A stretch of 64,000 nt of DNA from Oscillospiraceae bacterium (GCA_017847835.1 JAGASH010000001.1:7270-71269); one strand, 5' to 3'. Counted from the first letter of the stretch, positions 11,074-44,061 are shown. The notes: generated by a model from the letters alone, not told the origin. A program made the numbers and translations.

Positions 11074-11140
11074 AAATTCCCGAAAAACGGAATATCATTC
11101 CTGAAACTCGGGATTTTTTCGGGAAAATATATGTTACAAT
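11074..11140 (+). promoter_or_regulatory. Promoter module B, homologous to module A
   Basis: aaattcccgaaaaacg is identical to 9087-9102. Half-sites at 11077 and 11098; TG-T-TACAAT at 11132-11140 with the same 37-bp offset as in module A. Confidence 0.65.
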
Positions 11141-11146
11141 AAAATT

Positions 11147-11700
11147 GCAGACGAGTTCAAACTAGTCTGATATAGCACATTGAAAATCGAATAGCAGTAT
11201 TTCAGATACTTTCCCTCGCGCAGCCTGACAAGGAGAAAGCGGCAGGCTCGATACGATGTCGAGGGGGTTACGCCAAAAGCGCTGCGGACGCAGTGCAGTT
11301 AAGCGTGACCTCAGCCTCGCGCCAAGACGTTTACTGTATCAAAAATCGGACAAGCCCTGCGTTTAGCAGAACGAGAAAACTCGTCAAAAATCCGTAAAAT
11401 GATACAAAACCGAGCGATAAAGAGCGGCTCCCGAAACCGATGTGGCAGTCGGTGCGCGATGACCTGCGCGAGGGGACAATGATACTTCCGTCCAGCCACA
11501 GTTCGACGCAATGGGGGCGGCTTCATGAGAACCATGTTGAGGTGAAAGACCTATGACGCTGCAAGGCTAAGCAGCGGTCTGAAATACTCCCATATAGTCG
11601 GGGCGCGGGGCAAATACGACAATTTTTACAGGCAAACAGCGGAGAAATCCGCTTTAACATAAGATTTCGGCTCTGTGTTTTTGCAGAGCCGAGATTTTAC
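11147..11700 (+). ncRNA. Candidate large structured non-coding RNA / leader upstream of mazF
   Basis: Perfect long-range helices 11196-11206/11578-11588 and 11213-11223/11464-11474. Loop 11441-11446 is complementary to 11495-11500 (pseudoknot). Many local hairpins and no credible ORF. Confidence 0.72.
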
Positions 11701-11703
11701 ATA

Positions 11704-12084
11704 ATGGGAGAAATGAAAATGAACAAAAAAAGAATAAAGCGCGGGGAAATCTACCTCGCAAATCTTGAACCAAAAATCGGCAGCGAACAGGGCGGCTTTC
11801 GTCCGGTGGTGATTCTGCAAAACAATGTTGGCAACAAGCACAGCCCGACTACAATCGCCGCGCCAATCACAACAAAACGTATTCCGAACAGGCTTCCCGT
11901 GCACGTTTTCACGTTCGCGGGGAGTTCGGGTTTGCCGCAAAATTCGAGCATAATGCTTGAGCAAATCCGAGTTCTCGACAAATCGCGCTTGACCGACTAT
12001 ATCGGCAAAATCAACGATTTCACAATGGACGAGGTTGACCGAGCACTGAAAATAAGCGTGGGTTTAAACTCAAAATACAACTGA
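11704..12084 (+). CDS. mazF: PemK/MazF-family endoribonuclease toxin (probable start 11719)
   Basis: KRGEIYLANLEPKIGSEQGGFRPVVILQNNVGNKHSPTTIAAPIT...LEQIRVLDKSRL. Confidence 0.93.
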   Translation: MGEMKMNKKRIKRGEIYLANLEPKIGSEQGGFRPVVILQNNVGNKHSPTTIAAPITTKRIPNRLPVHVFTFAGSSGLPQNSSIMLEQIRVLDKSRLTDYIGKINDFTMDEVDRALKISVGLNSKYN

Positions 12085-12092
12085 GGTGAAGA

Positions 12093-12233
12093 ATGGATAA
12101 CGAGGCAATTATCAACTACAAATTCTACTTGTGCAAGATTTTTCTGGACAAGATTTTAGCCGAAAAATTGATTACAAAATCACAGAGAGCAAGCCTTGAA
12201 AACGCTGTTATAAAGCGGCTTTCGGGACTTTGA
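12093..12233 (+). CDS. Small SHOCT-like protein (46 aa)
   Basis: Not in the ORF track. GAGGTG RBS; MDNEAIINYKFYLCKIFLDKILAEKLITKSQRASLENAVIKRLSGL. Such small ORFs commonly precede recombinase triplets. Confidence 0.6.
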   Translation: MDNEAIINYKFYLCKIFLDKILAEKLITKSQRASLENAVIKRLSGL

Positions 12234-12348
12234 ACTAATGTCACTTTTCGTCAATTTTGATGCAAAAATCCGCAGATATTTTGTCCGGTTTGGTGATAGA
12301 TTAAGCGAAAATTTTTCGGTATAATGTGTTGCGAAAGGAGATGAGAAA

Positions 12349-13884
12349 ATGGCTGAAATCACGATAATTCCTGCGAAAAATCAGCCGTCGGAAATTGTCC
12401 GAACTGCCGCTTACGCGCGAGTTTCAAGCGACAGCGAAGACCAGCTGAACTCGTTTGCAGCGCAAATTCGCTACTACACCGAGCTGCTCAAAAACAGCAC
12501 CGACGCGGTGCTCGTGGATATGTATGCGGACGAGGGAATCACCGGAACTTCGGCGGCAAAACGTCCGGATTTTCAGCGACTGATGAGCGACTGCCGAAAG
12601 GGAAAAATCGACCGAATTCTCACAAAATCCGTGTCAAGATTTGCGCGAAACACAACCGAATGTCTGGCGGCAGTACGCGAGCTGAAAGCGCTTGGAATAA
12701 GCGTTTACTTCGAAAAAGAGGACATCGAAACCGCCGAAATCAGCACGGAAATGCTGCTGACTTTGTACAGTCAATTCGCGCAGGAAGAGTCGATTTCAAT
12801 ATCAAAAAATGTGCGAATGGGCATCCAAAAACAAATGTCTGACGGAACCTACAAAAATCCCTCGGTGCCTTACGGTTTTATTTATGACAACGGAAAAATA
12901 ATTCCTGTCAAAGAAAAAGCAGAAACGGTTCGCCGAATTTTCAAGTGGTACGTTGATGGAATTGGAGCGGAAGAAATTTCGGTGAGATTAAACCGGATTA
13001 ACATTCCGGCACCGTACGGAAAATGCTGGCGAACAAATCAAATTCTGAGAATTCTAACCAATGAAAAATACGTCGGCGACACGCTTCTGCAAAAGAGATT
13101 CACAACAGATGCCCTTCCGTTCCGATTGGTCGAAAACCGTGGCGAGAAGCCAAAATTCTACATTCGGGAAACGCACGAGCCGATAGTTCAGCGCGAAATT
13201 TTTGACAAGGTTCAGTCGTTGCTAAAGTCAAGGAAACCAAACGTTGATTTCACATCACAAAAGAGTGTGTTCAGCGGAAAAATCAAATGCGGACGTTGCG
13301 GCTGCACATTTAGACGAAAGAAAAACCGCGAAAAAATCTATTGGGTCTGCCGAAATCACGACCATAAAAGTCTCACGGAGTGTGAAATTCGGCAAATTCG
13401 CGAAAGTGTATTTCAAGCGGCATTTGTGAGATTGTGGAACAAGCTCCAAGCGCATTACAAAGCCGTTCTTATACCAATGATAAAGCAGTTTGAAATGCTT
13501 TACGAAAAAGAAAAATCAGGTGATTTTCAGCTCGCAAATCTGCGGAGAGAAATCGCGGAAATAAAGCAGCAAATCCACTTGCTGACCGTGCTGAACTCGC
13601 AGGGAACGCTGGATGATGCGTACTTCAAATCGCGCTCGCAGGAGCTTGACAGGAAGCTGATGACAGCGCAAAAACAACTCCGCGCAAGCCTTGATGATGA
13701 GGAAAACGAACGGCTTGACGAGCTGCGAAAACTGATTGCAATTCTCGAAAAATCCGCGCAGATAACCAAATTTGACGAGATAAAATTCGGGCAAATCGTG
13801 AGCAAAATCACGGTGCTTTCGGAGTCGGAAATACGGTTCGATATAATCGGCGGAATTGGCTTTACAGAGCAGATTGAGAGGTGA
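12349..13884 (+). CDS. Large serine recombinase (resolvase + recombinase + Zn-ribbon + coiled coil)
   Basis: AAYARVSSD catalytic Ser, TKSVSRFARN, NEKYVGD, KCGRCG...WVCRNH. Confidence 0.95.
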   Translation: MAEITIIPAKNQPSEIVRTAAYARVSSDSEDQLNSFAAQIRYYTELLKNSTDAVLVDMYADEGITGTSAAKRPDFQRLMSDCRKGKIDRILTKSVSRFARNTTECLAAVRELKALGISVYFEKEDIETAEISTEMLLTLYSQFAQEESISISKNVRMGIQKQMSDGTYKNPSVPYGFIYDNGKIIPVKEKAETVRRIFKWYVDGIGAEEISVRLNRINIPAPYGKCWRTNQILRILTNEKYVGDTLLQKRFTTDALPFRLVENRGEKPKFYIRETHEPIVQREIFDKVQSLLKSRKPNVDFTSQKSVFSGKIKCGRCGCTFRRKKNREKIYWVCRNHDHKSLTECEIRQIRESVFQAAFVRLWNKLQAHYKAVLIPMIKQFEMLYEKEKSGDFQLANLRREIAEIKQQIHLLTVLNSQGTLDDAYFKSRSQELDRKLMTAQKQLRASLDDEENERLDELRKLIAILEKSAQITKFDEIKFGQIVSKITVLSESEIRFDIIGGIGFTEQIER

Positions 13885-13888
13885 CAAA

Positions 13889-14398
13889 ATGCTGAAAAAC
13901 AGAAGTATTCCGTTCGGGTATTGCGTGGTAAACGGCAGCTTTGCGGTGAACGAAATCGAAGCCGAAGCGGTACGGAAAATCTTCGCGGACTATATATGCG
14001 GGAAATCGCTGAAAACTATCGCTGCCGAAATGAAAATTCCCTACAATTCGGGCAAAACTTGGAATAAAAACACGATAAGCCGAATCCTCGACAACAAAAA
14101 ATACACCGGCGAAAACGGCTGTCCGAGGATAATTTCCGATGAGGATTTCTTGCGTGTGTCGCAAATAAAATCCGAGCGCAATAAGTGCCGTAAACCAGCT
14201 CTGCGAGCCGATTTGCAGGATAATCAACAAGCGGATTTCACGGCAACCGAATATGTTTCAAACGAAGAAATTGAACGGATTTCAAATGAGATAAAACGAC
14301 TTTTGCAAGCGGAAAATTCTGAAAAAGAAACGATTGAAAACTTGATTTTAAAGTGTGCGAAAATGAAATATTCTGCGATAATCGAGGTGAAAAAATGA
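13889..14398 (+). CDS. Small recombinase-domain protein (middle gene of the triplet)
   Basis: RSIPFGYC, EAEAVRKIFADYICGKSLKTIA, ILDNKKYTG; lacks the catalytic resolvase domain. Confidence 0.85.
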   Translation: MLKNRSIPFGYCVVNGSFAVNEIEAEAVRKIFADYICGKSLKTIAAEMKIPYNSGKTWNKNTISRILDNKKYTGENGCPRIISDEDFLRVSQIKSERNKCRKPALRADLQDNQQADFTATEYVSNEEIERISNEIKRLLQAENSEKETIENLILKCAKMKYSAIIEVKK

Positions 14399-16023
14399 CG
14401 GAAACAGACGTTGCGAATAAGCCGAAAATCATCGTAATTCCGGCGAAAAATCGCGATGAAATTCGGCGAAAAACGCGCTTGAAAGTTGCCGCGTACTGTC
14501 GCGTCAGCACCGACCAAGAGGAGCAGGAATCGAGCTACGAAGCGCAGATTTCCTACTACACCGAGAAGATAAAAAACAACTCGGAATGGGCGCTCGCGGG
14601 GATTTTCGCGGACGAGGGAATCACCGGAACTCAGGCGAAAAAACGCCCCGAATTTCTCAAAATGATTAGTCTTTGCCGGCAGCGAAAAATCGACCTCATT
14701 CTCACAAAATCTTTGTCAAGATTTGCACGAAACACGGTTGACAGCCTGAACTACATACGCGAGCTGAAAGCGCTTGGCATTGCGGTTTTCTTCGAGAAAG
14801 AGAACATAAACACGCTTGATTCGGACACCGAAATGATGCTGACGATTATGTCCTGTTTCGCGCAGGCAGAATCGGAATCAATCAGCAAAAATGTGTCGTG
14901 GGGCATTCGGCAGAGCTTCAAAAACGGCAAGGTTACGCTTCAGTTTTCCCGGCTGCTCGGGTATCGGAAGGGCGCGGACGGAAACGCAGAAATTGACGGC
15001 GATGAGGCGAAAATTGTTCAAGATATTTTTCGCTGCTATCTCGAGGGAATGAGCTTGAATCTGATTGCGGACAGGCTTAACGACAGGGGTTTGAAGACAA
15101 AGGGGAACGGCTCGCCGTACCGAAAAGAGGTTGTTCGGCGCATTCTCACGAACGAAAAATATGTCGGCGACGCGCTTTTGCAGAAGACTTTTATTACCGA
15201 TTGCATCACGAAAAAATCGCGGAAAAACAACGGAGAATTGCCGATGTATCTGGTGAAAAATCATCACGAGCCGATAATTTCACGCGTTGATTTTAACCGC
15301 GTTCAAGAGGAAATGGCGCGGCGTTCGGCGAAGCGTGTGATTGCCGATAAGCTAGGCAAAAAGGGGAAATACAGCGCGAAATATGCTCTCTCGGAGCTTC
15401 TGGTTTGCGGTGAATGTGGGGCAAATTATCGGCGGGTGACTTGGACTGCAAAGGGTTACAAGGAGATAAAATGGCGGTGCGTCAACCGTTTGTTGTATGG
15501 AAAAAAAGAGTGCAAGTGTTCGCCGACGATTGATGAGAAATCGCTTCACAAGGGGATTGTAAGTGCAATAAACGAGTTTTGTGATGTCAAGGAAGATGTC
15601 GCGAAAGTGCTTCGGGAGAGCGTTTGCGAGGTGCTTGACCCGAACCAAAACGGCAGCGTGAAAGCGGCACAGCAGAGAATTAACGAGCTTGCGATGAATA
15701 TTGACGAATTGATTAAGCTGGCGACTGAACCCGAAAATACGAAAGATGCGATGAGTGATATCGAGAAATTCAGCGAGGAAATGAAAAATCTCCGTGAGTT
15801 TATTGAGAGCGAAAAGCGAAAAAACGCTGCCGCTGAAAGTAATTCCGGGCAGCTTAACGCCGTGCTTGAACGGATTGAAAACGAGGATTTCAAGCTGACA
15901 GAATATGATGATGTAGCGGTGAGGCAGCTTGTTGAACGGGTTGTGGTTGAGAGCAAAAACTGTATAACGGTGCGGTTTAAGGGCGGGTTTGAGGTGAGAA
16001 AGGAACTGGAAAATGACGGTTGA
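14395..16023 (+). CDS. Large serine recombinase
   Basis: AAYCRVSTD, TKSLSRFARN, NEKYVGD, VCGECG...WRCVNR. Confidence 0.95.
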   Translation: MTETDVANKPKIIVIPAKNRDEIRRKTRLKVAAYCRVSTDQEEQESSYEAQISYYTEKIKNNSEWALAGIFADEGITGTQAKKRPEFLKMISLCRQRKIDLILTKSLSRFARNTVDSLNYIRELKALGIAVFFEKENINTLDSDTEMMLTIMSCFAQAESESISKNVSWGIRQSFKNGKVTLQFSRLLGYRKGADGNAEIDGDEAKIVQDIFRCYLEGMSLNLIADRLNDRGLKTKGNGSPYRKEVVRRILTNEKYVGDALLQKTFITDCITKKSRKNNGELPMYLVKNHHEPIISRVDFNRVQEEMARRSAKRVIADKLGKKGKYSAKYALSELLVCGECGANYRRVTWTAKGYKEIKWRCVNRLLYGKKECKCSPTIDEKSLHKGIVSAINEFCDVKEDVAKVLRESVCEVLDPNQNGSVKAAQQRINELAMNIDELIKLATEPENTKDAMSDIEKFSEEMKNLREFIESEKRKNAAAESNSGQLNAVLERIENEDFKLTEYDDVAVRQLVERVVVESKNCITVRFKGGFEVRKELENDG

Positions 16024-16396
16024 AAAGAAAGGAATCACGGTCAAAGTCGATGCGGAACTTCATGCGGAGGTTCGGCAGTATCTTGAGGAAAATGGGCTGA
16101 CAATGGCGGAGTTTGTTGCGAAGTCGCTTCGGGACGAGCTTCACCCGAAATTTGCGGAGGAAAAATCTATGGAAAATATGCGGACGCTGGCTTTTCAGGT
16201 GCCGGAGGAACTTTTTCGGAAAATCAAGGACTACTTGCAGCGCAATAATTTGACGCAGAAGGAGTTTGTGATTGGGCTGATTGAGAATGAAATTGAGCGG
16301 GATTTGGCGCAGAGGCAAGCCGAGGGCGAGATTGCGGAGAATCTTGAACGGAGTGAGTTTGAGGGCGACGATATGGGTATGTCGATGAGAATGTGA
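16013..16396 (+). CDS. Small protein, probably tandem ribbon-helix-helix DNA-binding domains
   Basis: Two RHH-like segments: KGITVKVDAELHAEVRQYL and RTLAFQVPEELFRKIKDYL. Confidence 0.6.
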   Translation: MTVEKKGITVKVDAELHAEVRQYLEENGLTMAEFVAKSLRDELHPKFAEEKSMENMRTLAFQVPEELFRKIKDYLQRNNLTQKEFVIGLIENEIERDLAQRQAEGEIAENLERSEFEGDDMGMSMRM

Positions 16397-16440
16397 AATA
16401 GTACAAATTATTGTGTCGCATTTTGGCGAAAAGGGAGAAT

Positions 16441-16514
16441 TTGTTACAGGTTGCGCAGGATTTTGACATCTTGCGCATTGATGGGTTGAAAAGTGAACAA
16501 GAATATATTATAAT
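16441..16514 (+). repeat. Promoter-containing intergenic module, copy 1
   Basis: 16441-16491 matches 27747-27797 at 42/51 nt with no gaps; TTGAAA-17-TATAAT. Confidence 0.7.
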
Positions 16515-16570
16515 AGTATATGAAAGCAATATTATTGTTCTCTTCAATGTATTATCAATAAGGGTGTGAC

Positions 16571-17189
16571 TTGAACGAACTCCAACTATAACGAATACAA
16601 AAGATTTTCCCTTGAAGAAGCATCGGATTGGGGAAGAAAAAACTATGGGAATTGGCTGCCGGAACTTCAAAATCAAGATTACTCGCCGCAGACTCCTGCC
16701 GAGGAATTCTTCAGGTACTATACTCAAGGTCCGAATAGTTTTTTTAGTAGACTAGCCAGACGCGATGAAATTGATACATTTGATTTTAGCGATAGCATTT
16801 TCAAAAAGGAAATGTTTGATGACAGTGTTCACGAAATCAATTCCCATCCAATTCCGGACGATATAGTTGTTTACAGATATGTTCCTAAACTACTCATAAG
16901 TTGTATGCTGGAGTGGGGTGGCTCAAAATCATTGAAAAAGAACGCTATTCTTATTGACAAAGGGTTCTTTAGTACGACATTATCTTTAGAAGCTGTTGCT
17001 GAACAGCCATACGCTACTTTAAAAAACCGTTCCTTGTTTACTGTTTATGTTCCAAAGGGAACGCCGGCTGTATATGTCGATTTGGTTTCTGATATGAACG
17101 AGCAGGAAATGCTTTTTGCTCCGGGGATAAGGCTTAAGGTGATTAGTAAGCATTTCTTGGGTAAAGTTGTAGAGTGTATCGTTTGTTAA
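16571..17189 (+). pseudogene. VIP2/C3-like mono-ADP-ribosyltransferase, frameshifted just after the start codon
   Basis: Frame open from 16575 (EEASDWGRKNYGNW...VVYRYV...GFFSTTL...NEQEMLF; R-STT-ExE). The TTG at 16571 is out of frame because of ttGAACGAACtcc; removing one GAAC gives MNSNYNEYKR. Confidence 0.75.
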
Positions 17190-22967: not shown

Positions 22968-23002
22968 GTTTCGCCCCGAGTTAATTCTTGGGGCGTTTTT
23001 TT
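22968..23002 (+). terminator. Terminator after the Hint gene
   Basis: cgccccgag ... cttggggcg followed by a T-run. Confidence 0.6.
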
Positions 23003-39913: not shown

Positions 39914-42343
39914 ATGACAACTGTTTTAAAGCTTGTTGCAGTAGGACTGCTTCCCGTAGCGGTCAGCGTTATATTATATATAATCGACAAACACACGGCT
40001 TTCGGAAAGATGAAGTATTACCCGAAGCAAATTGTGCTGGGACTGATTTTCGGTGTGCTGGCGGTTTGTGCGACGGAATTCGGAGTTGACATCGGCGGTG
40101 CGATAATAAACGTCCGCGACAGCGCTCCGATTTGCGCGGGACTTATCTTCGGTGCGCCCGCAGGTATAATTTCGGGTGTTATCGGCGGCGTGGAGCGCTG
40201 GTTTTCGACAATGTGGGGCGGCGGTGAGTACACAAGACTTGCCTGCACAGTCGCGACAATTCTCGCGGGACTTTTTGCGGCTGCCTGCCGAAAATATATG
40301 TTCGACAACAAAAAGCCGACGTGGTATTTCGGGCTTGCTATCGGTATGATTACCGAGGTAATCCACATGCTGATGATTTTCCTTACGAATATGTCCGATG
40401 TACACGTTGCGTTCTCGTTTGTGAAATTCTGCTCGATACCGATGATTTCTCTCAACAGCCTTTCGGTAATGCTCTCGGTGCTTTTGATTTCAATTCTCGG
40501 CAGTCAGCACAAGAAAAAGCAGCACGAGCTTAAACAAATCGCGCAGACTTTTCAGCGGTGGCTGCTGGTGTGTCTGATAATCGGATTTTTGTGTACAACC
40601 GTCTTTTCGTGGGTGCTTCAGACGCAGTTGTCCGAGAGCGACGCGGAAAACCTTGTCAGACTTAATCTCACGGACGTAAAACAGGATATTTCGGACGCTT
40701 CCGACAAGAATTTGCTTTCGATAACGCACAAGGTTGCCGATGAAATCAAAAAAACGGAAAATGTTGATAAGCAGAAGCTGATTGAACTGAGCGAGGTTTA
40801 CGATGTTTCCGAGATAAATATCGTGGATAAACGCGGAGTTATAACCGTGTCAACCTATGACGCTTTTCTGAATTACAATATGAACAGCGGTGAACAGTCG
40901 GCGCAGTTCCTTGTCCTGCTTGACGGAAAGACAACCGAGTTTGTTCAGAGCTATCAGCCTACCGCGTCAAATCCCGATATATGGAGAAAATACGCGGGAA
41001 TTTCGCTGGAAAACGGCGGGTTTGTACAGGTCGCTTATGACGCGGAACGTTTCCGTAAGGACATCGACGAGCAGGTTCTCGGAGCAGCCCGAAACCGTCA
41101 TATCGGTGAAAGCGGCTTTATTATCATTGCCGACGAGGACAGAAAAATTGTGAGCAGCCGTGCTGACGGAGAGGATATTCCGCGCGATTTTTCGGGGTTC
41201 AGCCTTAACGGAAATAGCATTCCCGAGGGACAGCGCGCCGACTGCGAAATCGGCGACAGAAAATATTTTATGATGTACACCACGACCGAGGGCTATTACA
41301 TAATCGCGTTTATGCCCGTCGATGAAGCGGTGTTCTCGCGCGATGTTTCGGTTTACGTCACGGTATTTATGGAGTTCATCATCTTCGGAATGTTGTTTGT
41401 GCTGGTTTATGTTCTAATCAAGAAGCTGGTTGTGGACAACATTGACCGCGTGAACGACTCTCTTTCGCAAATCACAAACGGCGATTTGAACGTTGTGGTT
41501 GACGTGCGCTCGAACAGCGAGTTTGCGTCGCTTTCCGACGACATAAATTCAACCGTAGTCACGCTGAAAAGATATATTGCCGAAGCAGCCGCGCGAATTG
41601 ACAAGGAGCTTGAATTTGCAAAGGCAATTCAGCATTCTGCGCTCCCGAGCGTTTTCCCGCCGTTCCCGAACAGAACGGAATTTGACATTTTCGCGTCAAT
41701 GGATACTGCGAAGGAAGTCGGCGGAGATTTCTATGATTTTTACTTTGTCGGCGAGGATAAGCTCGCGTTCCTTATAGCGGACGTTTCGGGCAAGGGAATT
41801 CCCGCGGCAATGTTTATGATGACGTCAAAAACGCTGCTGAAGAGCTTTGCGGAAACGGGAAGCGAGGTCAACGACGTGTTTACGGCGGCAAACGCGAAGC
41901 TCTGCGAAAACAACGAGGCTGCGATGTTCGTAACCGCTTGGATGGGCGTTCTTGACATTAAAACGGGGCTTGTTGAATTTGCGAATGCCGGTCATAATAT
42001 GCCGCTTGTTCGTCACAAGGACGGCAGCTTTGAGTATCTGAAATCGCGCGCGGGCTTTGTTCTTGCGGGAATGGAGGGCTTGAAGTTCCGCAAAAACGAG
42101 CTTACTCTCGGCGAGGGTGACGAGATTTTCCTGTACACCGACGGTGTGACTGAGGCTACAAATTCGCAAAACGAGCTGTACGGCGAAGAACGCTTGCTTG
42201 CCTTTATGAACACGCTTCGCGATGTGCCGCCGAGCGAAATCTGCGGATTGGTAAAGGCTGACGTGGACGCTTTTGTCGGAGAAGCGCCGCAGTTTGACGA
42301 TATCACAATGGTTTATCTGAGATTTAACGGCGACAAGCGCTGA
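39914..42343 (+). CDS. Membrane PP2C/SpoIIE-type phosphatase (LytS-like 5TM, sensor, HAMP)
   Basis: NVRD..PICAGLIFG 5TM region; EVGGDFYD, IADVSGKG, YTDGVTE, DDITM. Confidence 0.92.
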   Translation: MTTVLKLVAVGLLPVAVSVILYIIDKHTAFGKMKYYPKQIVLGLIFGVLAVCATEFGVDIGGAIINVRDSAPICAGLIFGAPAGIISGVIGGVERWFSTMWGGGEYTRLACTVATILAGLFAAACRKYMFDNKKPTWYFGLAIGMITEVIHMLMIFLTNMSDVHVAFSFVKFCSIPMISLNSLSVMLSVLLISILGSQHKKKQHELKQIAQTFQRWLLVCLIIGFLCTTVFSWVLQTQLSESDAENLVRLNLTDVKQDISDASDKNLLSITHKVADEIKKTENVDKQKLIELSEVYDVSEINIVDKRGVITVSTYDAFLNYNMNSGEQSAQFLVLLDGKTTEFVQSYQPTASNPDIWRKYAGISLENGGFVQVAYDAERFRKDIDEQVLGAARNRHIGESGFIIIADEDRKIVSSRADGEDIPRDFSGFSLNGNSIPEGQRADCEIGDRKYFMMYTTTEGYYIIAFMPVDEAVFSRDVSVYVTVFMEFIIFGMLFVLVYVLIKKLVVDNIDRVNDSLSQITNGDLNVVVDVRSNSEFASLSDDINSTVVTLKRYIAEAAARIDKELEFAKAIQHSALPSVFPPFPNRTEFDIFASMDTAKEVGGDFYDFYFVGEDKLAFLIADVSGKGIPAAMFMMTSKTLLKSFAETGSEVNDVFTAANAKLCENNEAAMFVTAWMGVLDIKTGLVEFANAGHNMPLVRHKDGSFEYLKSRAGFVLAGMEGLKFRKNELTLGEGDEIFLYTDGVTEATNSQNELYGEERLLAFMNTLRDVPPSEICGLVKADVDAFVGEAPQFDDITMVYLRFNGDKR

Positions 42344-42585
42344 AGACGCTGCACCAAAACAAAATCACCGAAAACGGCTCTGATTTACTTCAAGAATAAT
42401 CCCGTCCGAAATCAGGACGGGATTTTCCGTAGGAAATGCGGGAATATTTCCTCAAATCGCTCCTAATATTTGAATAAGTGGTTGACAAAAGCTGTGGTGT
42501 GCGGTATAATTAAAGAAGATTATTTTGTAAAAAAAGGTCGCAAACGCGGCCGTTCAGATAAAAAGCTGAAAATTTGGGGTGCAAT

Positions 42586-44061
42586 ATGGTTTTTTCGGAT
42601 TTATTTTTCCTGTATATTTTTATTCCTGCCGTGGCAATTTGCTATGCGCTGGCACGGTGCGGTGACAGAGCGAGGCTGAAAGCAGCCGAAACAGGCAGAG
42701 CTCCGCGATATGCAAACGCAAATCTCTGCCCGTACACAAACGCTGTGCTGATAGTTTTCTCGCTGATTTTTTACGCGTGGGGCGAGCCGATTTACATATT
42801 CCTTATGCTCGCAAGCGTTGTGATGAACTATTTCGTCGGCTTGTTTATCGCGCGGGGAAAGCAAAGCTCAAAGCCTGCGCTGGTTGTGGGACTTGTGCTG
42901 AATATCGCTATTATCGGTGTGTTCAAGTACGCGGATTTTCTCGTTGACACGCTCAATCTCACGGGAATAGGCATTCCAAAGCCCAACATCGCGCTCCCGA
43001 TAGGAATAAGCTTCTTCACATTCCAGTCCATTTCTTACCTGATTGACGTTTACCGCCGCGAGGTAAAGGCTCAGCGTAATTTCTTCTCGCTTTTGCTGTA
43101 TATTTCGATGTTCCCGCAGCTGATTGCAGGACCTATCGTGCGTTATTCCACAATTTCCGAGGAAATAAGCAATCGCACAATCAACTTCAACGATATCTCG
43201 GAGGGCTCTTTCCGTTTTCTTATCGGTCTTGGAAAGAAGGTTATCCTTGCAAATCAGCTTGCCGAGATTTCCTCGAAATTCCTTGACGGAAACCTTTCTT
43301 CGCTTACAACGGGCGGTGCTTGGCTTGGAATTTTCGCGTACACCTTGCAGATTTACTTCGACTTCTCGGGCTATTCGGATATGGCAATCGGAATGGGACG
43401 CTGCTTCGGCTTCCACTTTGACGAGAACTTCAATCACCCGTATATTGCCCGCACAATCACGGATTTCTGGAGGCGCTGGCACATCTCGCTGGGCAGCTTC
43501 TTCCGCGACTATGTTTACATTCCTCTAGGCGGAAACCGCAGGCATCAGCCTCTGAACATACTCATAGTGTGGTTTATGACGGGCTTGTGGCACGGCGCAA
43601 GCTGGAATTTCGTGCTCTGGGGACTGTATTTCGGCGCGATTATAATGCTTGAAAAATACACAATCCTTAAAATCAAGGACAAAATCCCGCCGATTTTCCT
43701 GCATTTGTACAGCATTTTTGTGATTGTATTCGGCTGGGTTATTTTCTATTTCGTGGATTTCTCGCGGCTTGGAGAGTTTATACCGATACTTTTCGGCGGC
43801 GGAAAAGCAGGCGGCTGGGACGCTGTGGTTCACGGTGAGCTTATGGGCAACATCTGGCTGCTGATTGGCGCGGTGATTTGCTGCTTCCCGATTTCAAAGA
43901 TTATCGGCTATTTTTACGACAAATCTGCTTCAAGCGACAGCGCAGGAGGCGAGGTTGTCCTCACGGGACTGAAAACGATTTGCTCTCTTGCAATTCTTGT
44001 CGTAAGCACCCTGCTGCTTATCGGAAGCACCACAAACCCGTTCCTTTATCTAAGATTTTAA
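42586..44061 (+). CDS. MBOAT O-acyltransferase (AlgI/DltB family)
   Basis: LPIGISFFTFQ, FPQLIAGPIVRY, DFSGYSDMAIG, FWRRWHISL, TGLWHGA. Confidence 0.94.
   Translation: MVFSDLFFLYIFIPAVAICYALARCGDRARLKAAETGRAPRYANANLCPYTNAVLIVFSLIFYAWGEPIYIFLMLASVVMNYFVGLFIARGKQSSKPALVVGLVLNIAIIGVFKYADFLVDTLNLTGIGIPKPNIALPIGISFFTFQSISYLIDVYRREVKAQRNFFSLLLYISMFPQLIAGPIVRYSTISEEISNRTINFNDISEGSFRFLIGLGKKVILANQLAEISSKFLDGNLSSLTTGGAWLGIFAYTLQIYFDFSGYSDMAIGMGRCFGFHFDENFNHPYIARTITDFWRRWHISLGSFFRDYVYIPLGGNRRHQPLNILIVWFMTGLWHGASWNFVLWGLYFGAIIMLEKYTILKIKDKIPPIFLHLYSIFVIVFGWVIFYFVDFSRLGEFIPILFGGGKAGGWDAVVHGELMGNIWLLIGAVICCFPISKIIGYFYDKSASSDSAGGEVVLTGLKTICSLAILVVSTLLLIGSTTNPFLYLRF

Follow-up and report, generated by a model that had tools for sequence, protein, structure and literature searches.

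What kind of RNA stands at the head of a toxin and recombinase operon in an Oscillospiraceae genome, and what would it do there? The locus in question occupies positions 11147 to 11700 on the + strand of a 64,000-nucleotide (nt) stretch of DNA from Oscillospiraceae bacterium (GCA_017847835.1 JAGASH010000001.1:7270-71269), hereafter called the window. A sequence-only reading of this DNA had described the locus as an elaborate non-coding RNA, had recognized in it neither a group II intron domain V nor a known riboswitch consensus and had proposed it as the best candidate for an undescribed system. The description is borne out: this is a long, ornate, cis-located RNA with nested long-range helices and pseudoknots, ahead of a pemK/mazF toxin gene and recombinase genes. 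The claim of novelty is not. The window RNA is a large new copy of the known pemK motif/canT family rather than a new system, and it is probably the leader RNA of a mobile-element operon that acts in cis as a processive antiterminator.

Family membership and the conserved fold

The only Rfam match in the whole window is RF02913 (pemK RNA), at 11476-11556 on the + strand. The cmscan alignment covers model positions 1-61 of 61 and scores 56.3 bits (gathering score, 34.8; E = 1.9e-7 over the window), and a second copy of the RNA in the same genome obtains an equal score. Relaxing the cutoff to E values of up to 10 brought out no further Rfam family here, and readings of the locus as a group II intron, a riboswitch, an OLE/ROOL/GOLLD-type RNA or a CRISPR were dropped. 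RF02913 stems from a survey of 224 candidates (Weinberg et al., 2017; PMC5737381), the main text of which does not mention pemK. Rfam classes the family as cis-regulatory, without an assigned function. Because the core is a full-length, above-threshold match to RF02913 and the whole architecture is common to canT of Tn916/Tn925, the region cannot be called undescribed. The sequence-only reading had itself allowed that a full-length match to an Rfam family would remove novelty; such a match exists, but the model covers only 81 of the ~450 structured nt.

Homologues were drawn from three sources: BLAST in 200 genomes of the same family (matches in 28), an exact-pattern scan on the core in species-representative genomes (at least 119 loci) and the same pattern scan in IMG/VR contigs (17 contigs). 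Removal of near-duplicates left 94 full-length representatives, or ~90 non-redundant homologues. Locus counts given below rest on ~146 loci, with 138 unique loci for the terminator and TTTACAT counts and 105 for the upstream gene; single loci are cited by number (for example, L098). When the 554 nt were searched by BLAST, no match was found in phage records, and plasmids gave only a 92-nt match to the core, on a Cohnella plasmid, the core being the conserved part.

The region is non-coding, with no + strand open reading frame (ORF) of 40 amino acids (aa) or more within 11147-11700. Its + strand folds to a minimum free energy (MFE) of -206.4 kcal/mol (z = -6.3 relative to dinucleotide shuffles), while the - strand gives a weaker z of -3.9. 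All of the complementary segments named in the sequence-only reading were confirmed in the sequence. These include 11196-11206 with 11578-11588, an exact complement of 11 bp that closes ~390 nt, and 11213-11223 with 11464-11474, also exact, which closes ~250 nt, as well as the hairpins CTCGA/TCGAG (11247-11263), ACGAG/CTCGT (11371-11384) and AGGT-GAAAG-ACCT (11540-11552). The two long-range helices, here called P1 and P2, are both present in the minimum-energy fold of the window RNA. In full, P1 spans 11196-11207/11577-11588 and P2 is a helix of 13 bp at 11211-11223/11464-11476.

The fold is conserved by covariation. In an alignment of 57 compact members and Tn916 (58 sequences; MAFFT and RNAalifold), 32 of the 38 consensus pairs carry compensatory changes, which places the long-range helices beyond chance. 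Across the ~90 non-redundant homologues, both P1 and P2 stay paired although their sequences vary freely. The 57 compact members by themselves, aligned and folded with the same programs, already yield P1, P2, an inner helix P4, the three pemK hairpins and a hairpin B behind them. Seven of the eight consensus pairs of P1 are changed on both sides with the pair kept in 9-31 of the 58 sequences (one pair is AU in 14 sequences, CG in 12, UA in 11 and GC in 7), and a separate alignment gives 11 P1 pairs that are 62-98% standard, with 3-6 pair types each. The six core consensus pairs of P2 are double-changed in 11-33 of the 58 sequences and stay standard in 93-97%, or 96-98% in the separate alignment; a sample pair is UA in 27 sequences, CG in 24 and AU in 4. 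A conserved GCGAUGA (11457-11463) lies just 5' of the P2 3' strand.

The conserved RNA starts at a 5' box, TTGAAAATCGAATA (11180-11193; consensus TTGAmAAnnGAATA), which precedes the AAUGAUAC of the core by 141-300 nt in most, or nearly all, of the ~146 loci. The spacing of 298 nt in the window belongs to the largest class. Possible pairing of the box (CCUUGA) with a 3' UCGAGG is 69-91% standard, but the variation consists nearly entirely of one-sided transitions, and four of the six positions pair in the window. The TTGAmA of the box was also considered as a -35 element and rejected, because the covarying 5' strand of P1 stands between it and any -10.

Inside P2 lies a further conserved helix, P4. 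Its 5' strand (11316-11322, within the conserved CGCCAAGAC) partners with 11414-11416 and 11422-11424 in GAGCGAUAAAGAG (11412-11424). The family consensus is auaCGC...GCGanaaaUAU, in which CGC/GCG is 96-100% standard and the flanking pairs covary; L098 has CUACGC.../GCGACAAAUAG. The MFE fold of the single sequence differs at this point, pairing 11317-11322 with 11455-11460. The sequence-only reading had noticed a second CCTCGCGC at 11315-11322 and suggested that it competes for the P2 3' strand in a conformational switch. There is no comparative sign of such alternation, and since this segment is accounted for as the conserved P4 strand, a switch competitor is not needed.

The pemK RNA core (11476-11556) consists of the single-stranded ACAAUGAUACUUCC followed by three hairpins. 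It is flanked by two more hairpins that are not part of the Rfam model. Hairpin A, ACCGA-UGUGGCAG-UCGGU (11436-11453), has three different stems, one in the window, one in the second genomic copy and L113, and one in L098. Hairpin B, CGCUGC-AAGGCUAA-GCAGCG (11557-11576), directly follows the three pemK hairpins, and five of its consensus pairs are double-changed in 18-26 of the 58 sequences. At two pairs of the consensus fold U-G occurs in 47 and 45 of the 58 sequences; these would be A-C on the other strand, so that the RNA must derive from the window's + strand.

Two pseudoknots are supported by comparison of the homologues, and neither is the one that had been proposed. Loop UGUGGC of hairpin A can indeed form 6 bp with GCCACA (11495-11500) in the window, but this is not a feature of the family. 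Within GCCACA, the CCA already has a partner in the UGG of a covarying pemK helix (one pair is UA in 37 sequences and CG in 21), loop A of relatives is mostly AYAGCW and not complementary to the GCCACA region (mean best run 3.4), and a loop substitution in L098 disrupts the pairing, which is possibly a lineage-specific extra. The first of the supported contacts is a kissing interaction of loops A and B. When loops were permuted among sequences, a procedure that ignores sequence kinship, the mean best complementary run of 4.82 compared with 3.84 +/- 0.15, and none of 2000 permutations reached the observed value. The paired loops vary widely (CAGCU/AGCUG, UAGCA/UGCUA in Tn916, UUGCU/AGCAA, UGCA/UGCA, GAUGA/UCAUC, CGGCUG/CAGCCG and UGGCA/UGCCA). 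In the window itself the contact is weak, at 4 bp (UGGC 11443-11446 with GCUA 11566-11569). The second is an H-type pseudoknot in the 3' domain (11589-11623), backed by covariation and permutation. Its stem S1, CCC 11589-11591 with GGG 11601-11603, is UCCN/NGGR in the family and covaries (UCCG/CGG, UCCC/GGGG and UCCU/AGGG, giving G-C, C-G and U-A). Stem S2, GUCG 11597-11600 with CGAC 11617-11620, joins the S1 loop to the bases after the conserved GGGGCAAAUA (11607-11616; family motif GGAYAAAUA). Its mean best run is 5.93 compared with 3.62 +/- 0.16 after permutation, and runs of 6 or more occur in 25 of 42 loci, where 3.4 would be expected; L049, for instance, has UUUUAUCG/CGAUAAAA.

The characterized relative is canT, the conjugation-associated processive antiterminator RNA of Tn916 (Wirachman and Grossman, 2024, PLoS Genet; PMC11658703). 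In that article, canT is described as orientation-specific, cis-acting and processive, as working on heterologous or distant terminators and with foreign promoters, and as requiring no other Tn916 gene; it is reported to be inactive in trans. A 452-bp fragment, nt 126-577 after the orf8 stop, is sufficient for antitermination, and the S3 change (AUA to UGC at nt 283) abolishes it (PMC11658703). Its authors regard the structure as not interpretable from single-sequence folds, and no comparative analysis is presented.

The canT interval holds the family architecture. In the Tn925/Tn916 of pCF10 (NC_006827), orf7 (sigma-70 family; 42432-42854), orf8 (42205-42435) and xis (41541-41744) lie on the - strand, followed by int, and RF02913 is found in the gap between orf8 and xis at 41922-41822 on the - strand (55.0 bits, E = 6e-9). 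In Tn916, canT is placed between a sigma-like/HTH regulatory pair (orf7 and orf8) and the genes for excision and integration. The 5' box starts at 42079, which is nt 126 after the orf8 stop and the first base of the active 452-bp fragment. The S3 change maps to 41922-41920, the AUA where P2 meets AAUGAUAC; the equivalent in the window is ACA 11476-11478, and both GAUAAUG and GACAAUG are common in the family. Moreover, the 162-bp deletion described in the canT study (nt 229-390; PMC11658703) spans hairpin A through hairpin B. The gap also contains P1 (AAUCGAA/UUCGAUU), P2 (CGAUAAG/CUUAUCG), the CGCCAUGAC/GAGCGA pairing and hairpins A and B, all in the same order, and the Tn916 hairpins A and B have a perfect 5-bp kissing pair. 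No paper linking canT to the pemK motif was found in the searchable literature. The Tn916 sequence aligns with the family over the 5' box, P1, P2, P4, hairpin A, the core and hairpin B, and the window RNA aligns to the same blocks. On these grounds of sequence and structure, the window RNA and canT are assigned to the same family.

Variable domains, flanks and gene context

The large size of the window RNA is due to two lineage-specific insertions. The first (11224-11312) comprises a hairpin at 11224-11233, a conserved AAGCGGC, the hairpin at 11247-11263 and a compound hairpin at 11264-11312 with an inner stem at 11281-11297. The second (11336-11405) is closed by GUAUCA/UGAUAC (GTATCA 11336 and TGATAC 11400) and in the MFE fold contains CGGA/UCCG (11347-11350/11391-11394) and hairpins at 11357-11369 and 11371-11384. 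Both are complete only in the second genomic copy and L113, and partial in L098, which lacks 11247-11313, and in L049. The hairpin position 11224-11233 covaries in the class of L022, L060 and L115. Compensatory changes are also seen in the second insertion (CUGC/GCAG compared with CGGC/GCCG; ACGAG/CUCGU compared with CAAG/CUUG and CAAA/UUUG), with thin support from few relatives.

The second copy (G000:C8:19830-21480, L002) is 94.7% identical to window positions 11178-12830 and has the same orientation. Relative to the window, hairpin A is changed at three pairs on both sides (CCGAU...GUCGG to CUUGC...GCAAG) and the stem 11281-11297 at one pair (CUGC/GCAG to CCGC/GCGG). Homology between the copies begins sharply at 11178, and nothing upstream matches. 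The two copies share the RNA, pemK, a small ORF and the 5' part of the first recombinase gene, and the later recombinase genes are just 71-75% identical. This pattern points to recent exchange of a module whose left edge falls abruptly, immediately ahead of the 5' box.

Upstream of the box, a putative extended -10 (TG-n-TACAAT, 11132-11140, + strand) was read by eye, and the transcript is predicted to start near 11147; this element is absent from the listing of a two-hexamer promoter scan. A hairpin, P0, follows at 11148-11169 in the MFE fold. The sequence of the hairpin at 11147-11169 falls outside the conserved part, which only begins at 11178. The hairpin's position is kept: a hairpin of varying sequence precedes the 5' box in most homologues, an unrelated one stands there in the second copy, and in the 94 homologues the mean folding energy of the 45 nt ahead of the box is -10.4 kcal/mol, compared with -6.0 for shuffles. 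In many family members (L004, L005, L017, L018, L049, L060, L115 and L002) a promoter-like block lies 20-45 nt before the 5' box, after a gene for a sigma-like protein, and consists of CCGnATAyA or TATTAT and then GnGARRGG, which opens the P0 hairpin. This block may be a site recognized by the sigma-like protein. The window copy has its unrelated extended -10 there.

A conserved AGGCAAA box opens the 3' flank (11630-11652), together with the hairpin GCGGA-GAAA-UCCGC (11639-11652), which has a GNRA cap. The AGGCAAAA is recurrent in many homologues, and the hairpin has a GUAA cap in L098 and the form GCGG-GAAA-CCGC in L049. Next comes a terminator-like hairpin (11661-11702, stem 11661-11698; -20.7 kcal/mol) with a U tract and then UACAU (11698-11702). 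L098 has the same terminator position and tail with a different stem sequence. By a crude detector, terminator-like hairpins follow the RNA in 65 of 138 unique loci, compared with 31 of 138 shuffles. TTTACAT follows it in 19 of 138 loci (14%), compared with 2.5% of shuffles, and is a trait of a subfamily, not a constant one.

The pemK/mazF gene (11719-12084, + strand; Pfam PF02452, E = 6e-32) likely starts at ATG 11719, after GGGAG 11706-11710 and 21 nt past the end of the terminator stem at 11698; in the second copy pemK encodes 121 aa from the same start. It is followed by a 46-aa ORF (12093-12233, + strand) with no Pfam match and by the serine recombinase genes (12349-16023, + strand). A homologue of the 46-aa ORF (61% identity) occurs in L049 at about +309 to +446 after the RNA core, directly behind the RNA and without pemK, and the ORF is therefore not a pemK-specific partner. 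It travels with the RNA and recombinase module and perhaps encodes a recombination directionality factor rather than a PemK antitoxin. The middle recombinase ORF (13856-14398, + strand; 180 aa) has only the Recombinase domain, lacks both the resolvase catalytic domain and the zinc ribbon, and overlaps both neighbors. Should it be a remnant or the product of a frameshift, as is possible, the operon would encode two complete serine recombinases instead of three. An ORF on the - strand lies nearby (16224-16727). Farther downstream, from 17400 to 57200 (about 40 kb), every ORF of at least 150 aa that is not nested in a larger + strand ORF is itself on the + strand, and one strong + strand terminator (22972-22995) was found in the first 20 kb. 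This same-strand layout would suit long-range antitermination.

Among the homologues, pemK lies within 2.5 kb downstream in 94 of 146 loci and is absent from 52, Tn916 included. In the representatives without pemK, the RNA heads small ORFs (HTH_17, DUF3789) accompanied by a gene for a serine recombinase or a tyrosine integrase, or else ArdC, RepA_N, ParA or Fic genes. Upstream, a gene for a small sigma-70 region 4 protein, on the same strand and ending 60-85 nt before the box, occurs in 81 of 105 loci and resembles orf7 of Tn916. The gene context is that of a recombination and maintenance module of mobile elements.

Most loci belong to Oscillospiraceae, Lachnospiraceae, Ruminococcus and other Clostridia, with some in Peptococcaceae, Syntrophomonadaceae, Desulfosporosinus and Paenibacillus. 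The core was also seen on contigs of metagenome-assembled genomes labeled Alistipes (L112), Micrarchaeota (L142), Desulfobulbaceae (L059) and Melainabacteria/Gastranaerophilaceae (L032/L047). Either the element has moved outside Bacillota or these contigs are contaminants introduced by binning. The 17 IMG/VR contigs (L150-L166), classed as viral, carry the core mostly with pemK downstream, and they are either phage-like elements using the same leader or integrative elements misfiled as viruses.

Proposed mechanism and alternative explanations

For the window, we infer transcription, antitermination and the choice of terminators overridden, and the sequence of events may be as follows. Transcription would start at or near 11147. 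The nascent RNA would fold compactly, with P1 and P2 closing the body and the loop-loop contact and the 3' pseudoknot bracing it, leaving the single strand AAUGAUACUUCC and the three pemK hairpins exposed on the folded body. By homology with canT, the folded RNA would stay bound to its own polymerase and make it resistant to intrinsic terminators. That polymerase could then ignore the terminator at 11661-11698 and go on to transcribe pemK, the 46-aa ORF and the recombinase genes. Read-through would probably continue far into the ~45 kb of same-strand genes, perhaps past the terminator at 22972-22995. Polymerases entering from outside, which have not made the RNA, would be stopped.

Several points weigh against antitermination in this form. 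The sole characterized relative shares the core but not the ~160 nt of inserts or the 3' pseudoknot domain of the window RNA, Tn916 being without the GGACAAAUA domain. The window has no upstream gene for a sigma-like protein; a tyrosine integrase gene on the opposite strand stands there, together with the putative promoter of the RNA itself. The operon points into a gene array, not out across the end of the element as in Tn916, and the logic of insulation until excision may differ. Finally, a terminator placed right after an always-active antiterminator is not obviously of use.

One alternative is a local attenuator or riboswitch-like leader, which would sense a ligand, a protein or the state of translation and control only the terminator at 11661-11698, thereby tuning pemK and the recombinases. 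A strong terminator directly after the RNA and the conserved AGGCAAA box form the classical layout of an expression platform, and the cis-regulatory class given by Rfam fits as well. Such a leader is nevertheless unlikely. The terminator stem is wholly different among relatives while the RNA body is conserved, no conserved alternative pairing was seen, only about half of the loci carry a terminator-like hairpin behind the RNA, and the characterized homologue acts on heterologous and distant terminators (PMC11658703). The same study reports that canT did not act in trans, which bears on a free-standing RNA that would end at the terminator and act in trans on element copy number or host targets. 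The putative promoter and strong terminator would give a discrete product of ~550 nt, but orientation and position relative to the downstream genes are fixed in ~146 loci, and this explanation is very improbable. The long inverted repeats could also be imagined as a feature of the DNA, either recombinase sites or an invertible segment, given that 11-bp repeats 390 nt apart adjoin three recombinase genes. However, the repeats vary freely yet stay complementary, their U-G pairs would become A-C mismatches if read from the opposite strand, covariation extends to many nested helices and loop-loop pairs, and both genomic copies have the same orientation. A DNA-level inverted repeat is excluded by this pattern of covariation.

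The proximity of the toxin gene raises a different possibility, which the sequence-only reading had mentioned, namely an RNA antitoxin or decoy in the style of type III systems. Here a PemK/MazF that has no protein antitoxin would bind or cut the folded RNA, or the unpaired AAUGAUACUUCC and UACAU segments in it, and would be neutralized in this way. The position of pemK after the RNA in 94 of 146 loci and the lack, in the window, of a protein antitoxin gene between them are consistent with this idea, as are the enrichment of TTTACAT after the RNA and the UACAU at 11698-11702, which we take to be the cleavage motif of several Bacillota MazF enzymes. Gene context disfavors it: the 52 loci without pemK within 2.5 kb lead xis-like, recombinase, ArdC, RepA or ParA genes instead, the conserved core is the same in loci with and without pemK, and TTTACAT is found in just 6 of 55 loci with pemK directly next to the RNA. 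Furthermore, type III antitoxins consist of tandem repeats of a short unit directly upstream of the toxin gene, from which a terminator separates them. A terminator is present here, but the RNA is a single non-repetitive fold of ~450 nt, and neither the alignment nor the fold shows internal direct repeats (no scan aimed at tandem repeats was made). Because a third of the loci are without pemK and the RNA is not repetitive, an antitoxin role is quite improbable. A dual role, in which the leader antiterminates and is also bound or cut by PemK through the inserted domains or the UACAU before the ribosome-binding site, is distinctly unlikely. If it were true, the antiterminator RNA would hold its toxin in check in place of a protein antitoxin, and the toxin would in turn act back on that RNA.

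Processive antitermination in cis is the reading preferred here. canT was defined genetically in a single element; the family alignment of ~90 members now yields an architecture backed by covariation, with P1, P2, P4, a kissing loop and a 3' pseudoknot, and the orphan Rfam motif RF02913 is tied to a demonstrated function. In many mobile elements of gut Clostridia, the same control device heads the operons for recombination and maintenance. In annotation, the pemK-recombinase operon, perhaps with the long defense-gene array behind it, should be treated as one transcription unit under antitermination control, and the lone PemK should not be presumed to be paired with an RNA antitoxin.

Comparison with known systems

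Compared with pemK RNA as modeled in RF02913, the window RNA matches all 61 model positions, and its core likewise lies upstream of pemK on the same strand. The model describes the core only, whereas the structure found here reaches ~300 nt upstream and ~70 nt downstream of it and adds P1, P2, P4, hairpins A and B, two pseudoknots and the 5' box.

Other antiterminator RNAs offer a functional analogy only. The eps-associated RNA (EAR) of Bacillus subtilis, put of phage HK022 and conAn2 of plasmid pLS20, which are listed in the canT study (PMC11658703), resemble the proposed mode of action in that the nascent RNA, folded at the start of a long operon, confers terminator resistance on the polymerase that made it. 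In the Rfam scan no family other than RF02913 gave a match in sequence or structure, and the window RNA is far larger than put.

The closest comparison is with canT. The two RNAs differ in the distance from the 5' box to the core, 298 nt in the window and ~157 nt in Tn916, as a result of the two inserted domains. The window RNA also possesses the 3' pseudoknot domain with GGGGCAAAUA, which Tn916 is without, and has a strong terminator directly downstream. It leads into pemK and serine recombinases, in contrast to the xis and tyrosine integrase of Tn916, and no orf7/orf8-like gene stands upstream of it. Despite these differences, both contain a full-length RF02913 core with similar scores (55.0 bits in Tn916 and 56.3 in the window) and, in the same order, the 5' box, P1, P2, the CGCCAnGAC/GAGCGA helix, hairpin A, the AAUGAUAC core, hairpin B and the P1 3' strand. 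Both are located upstream of the recombination genes of their element, on the same strand.

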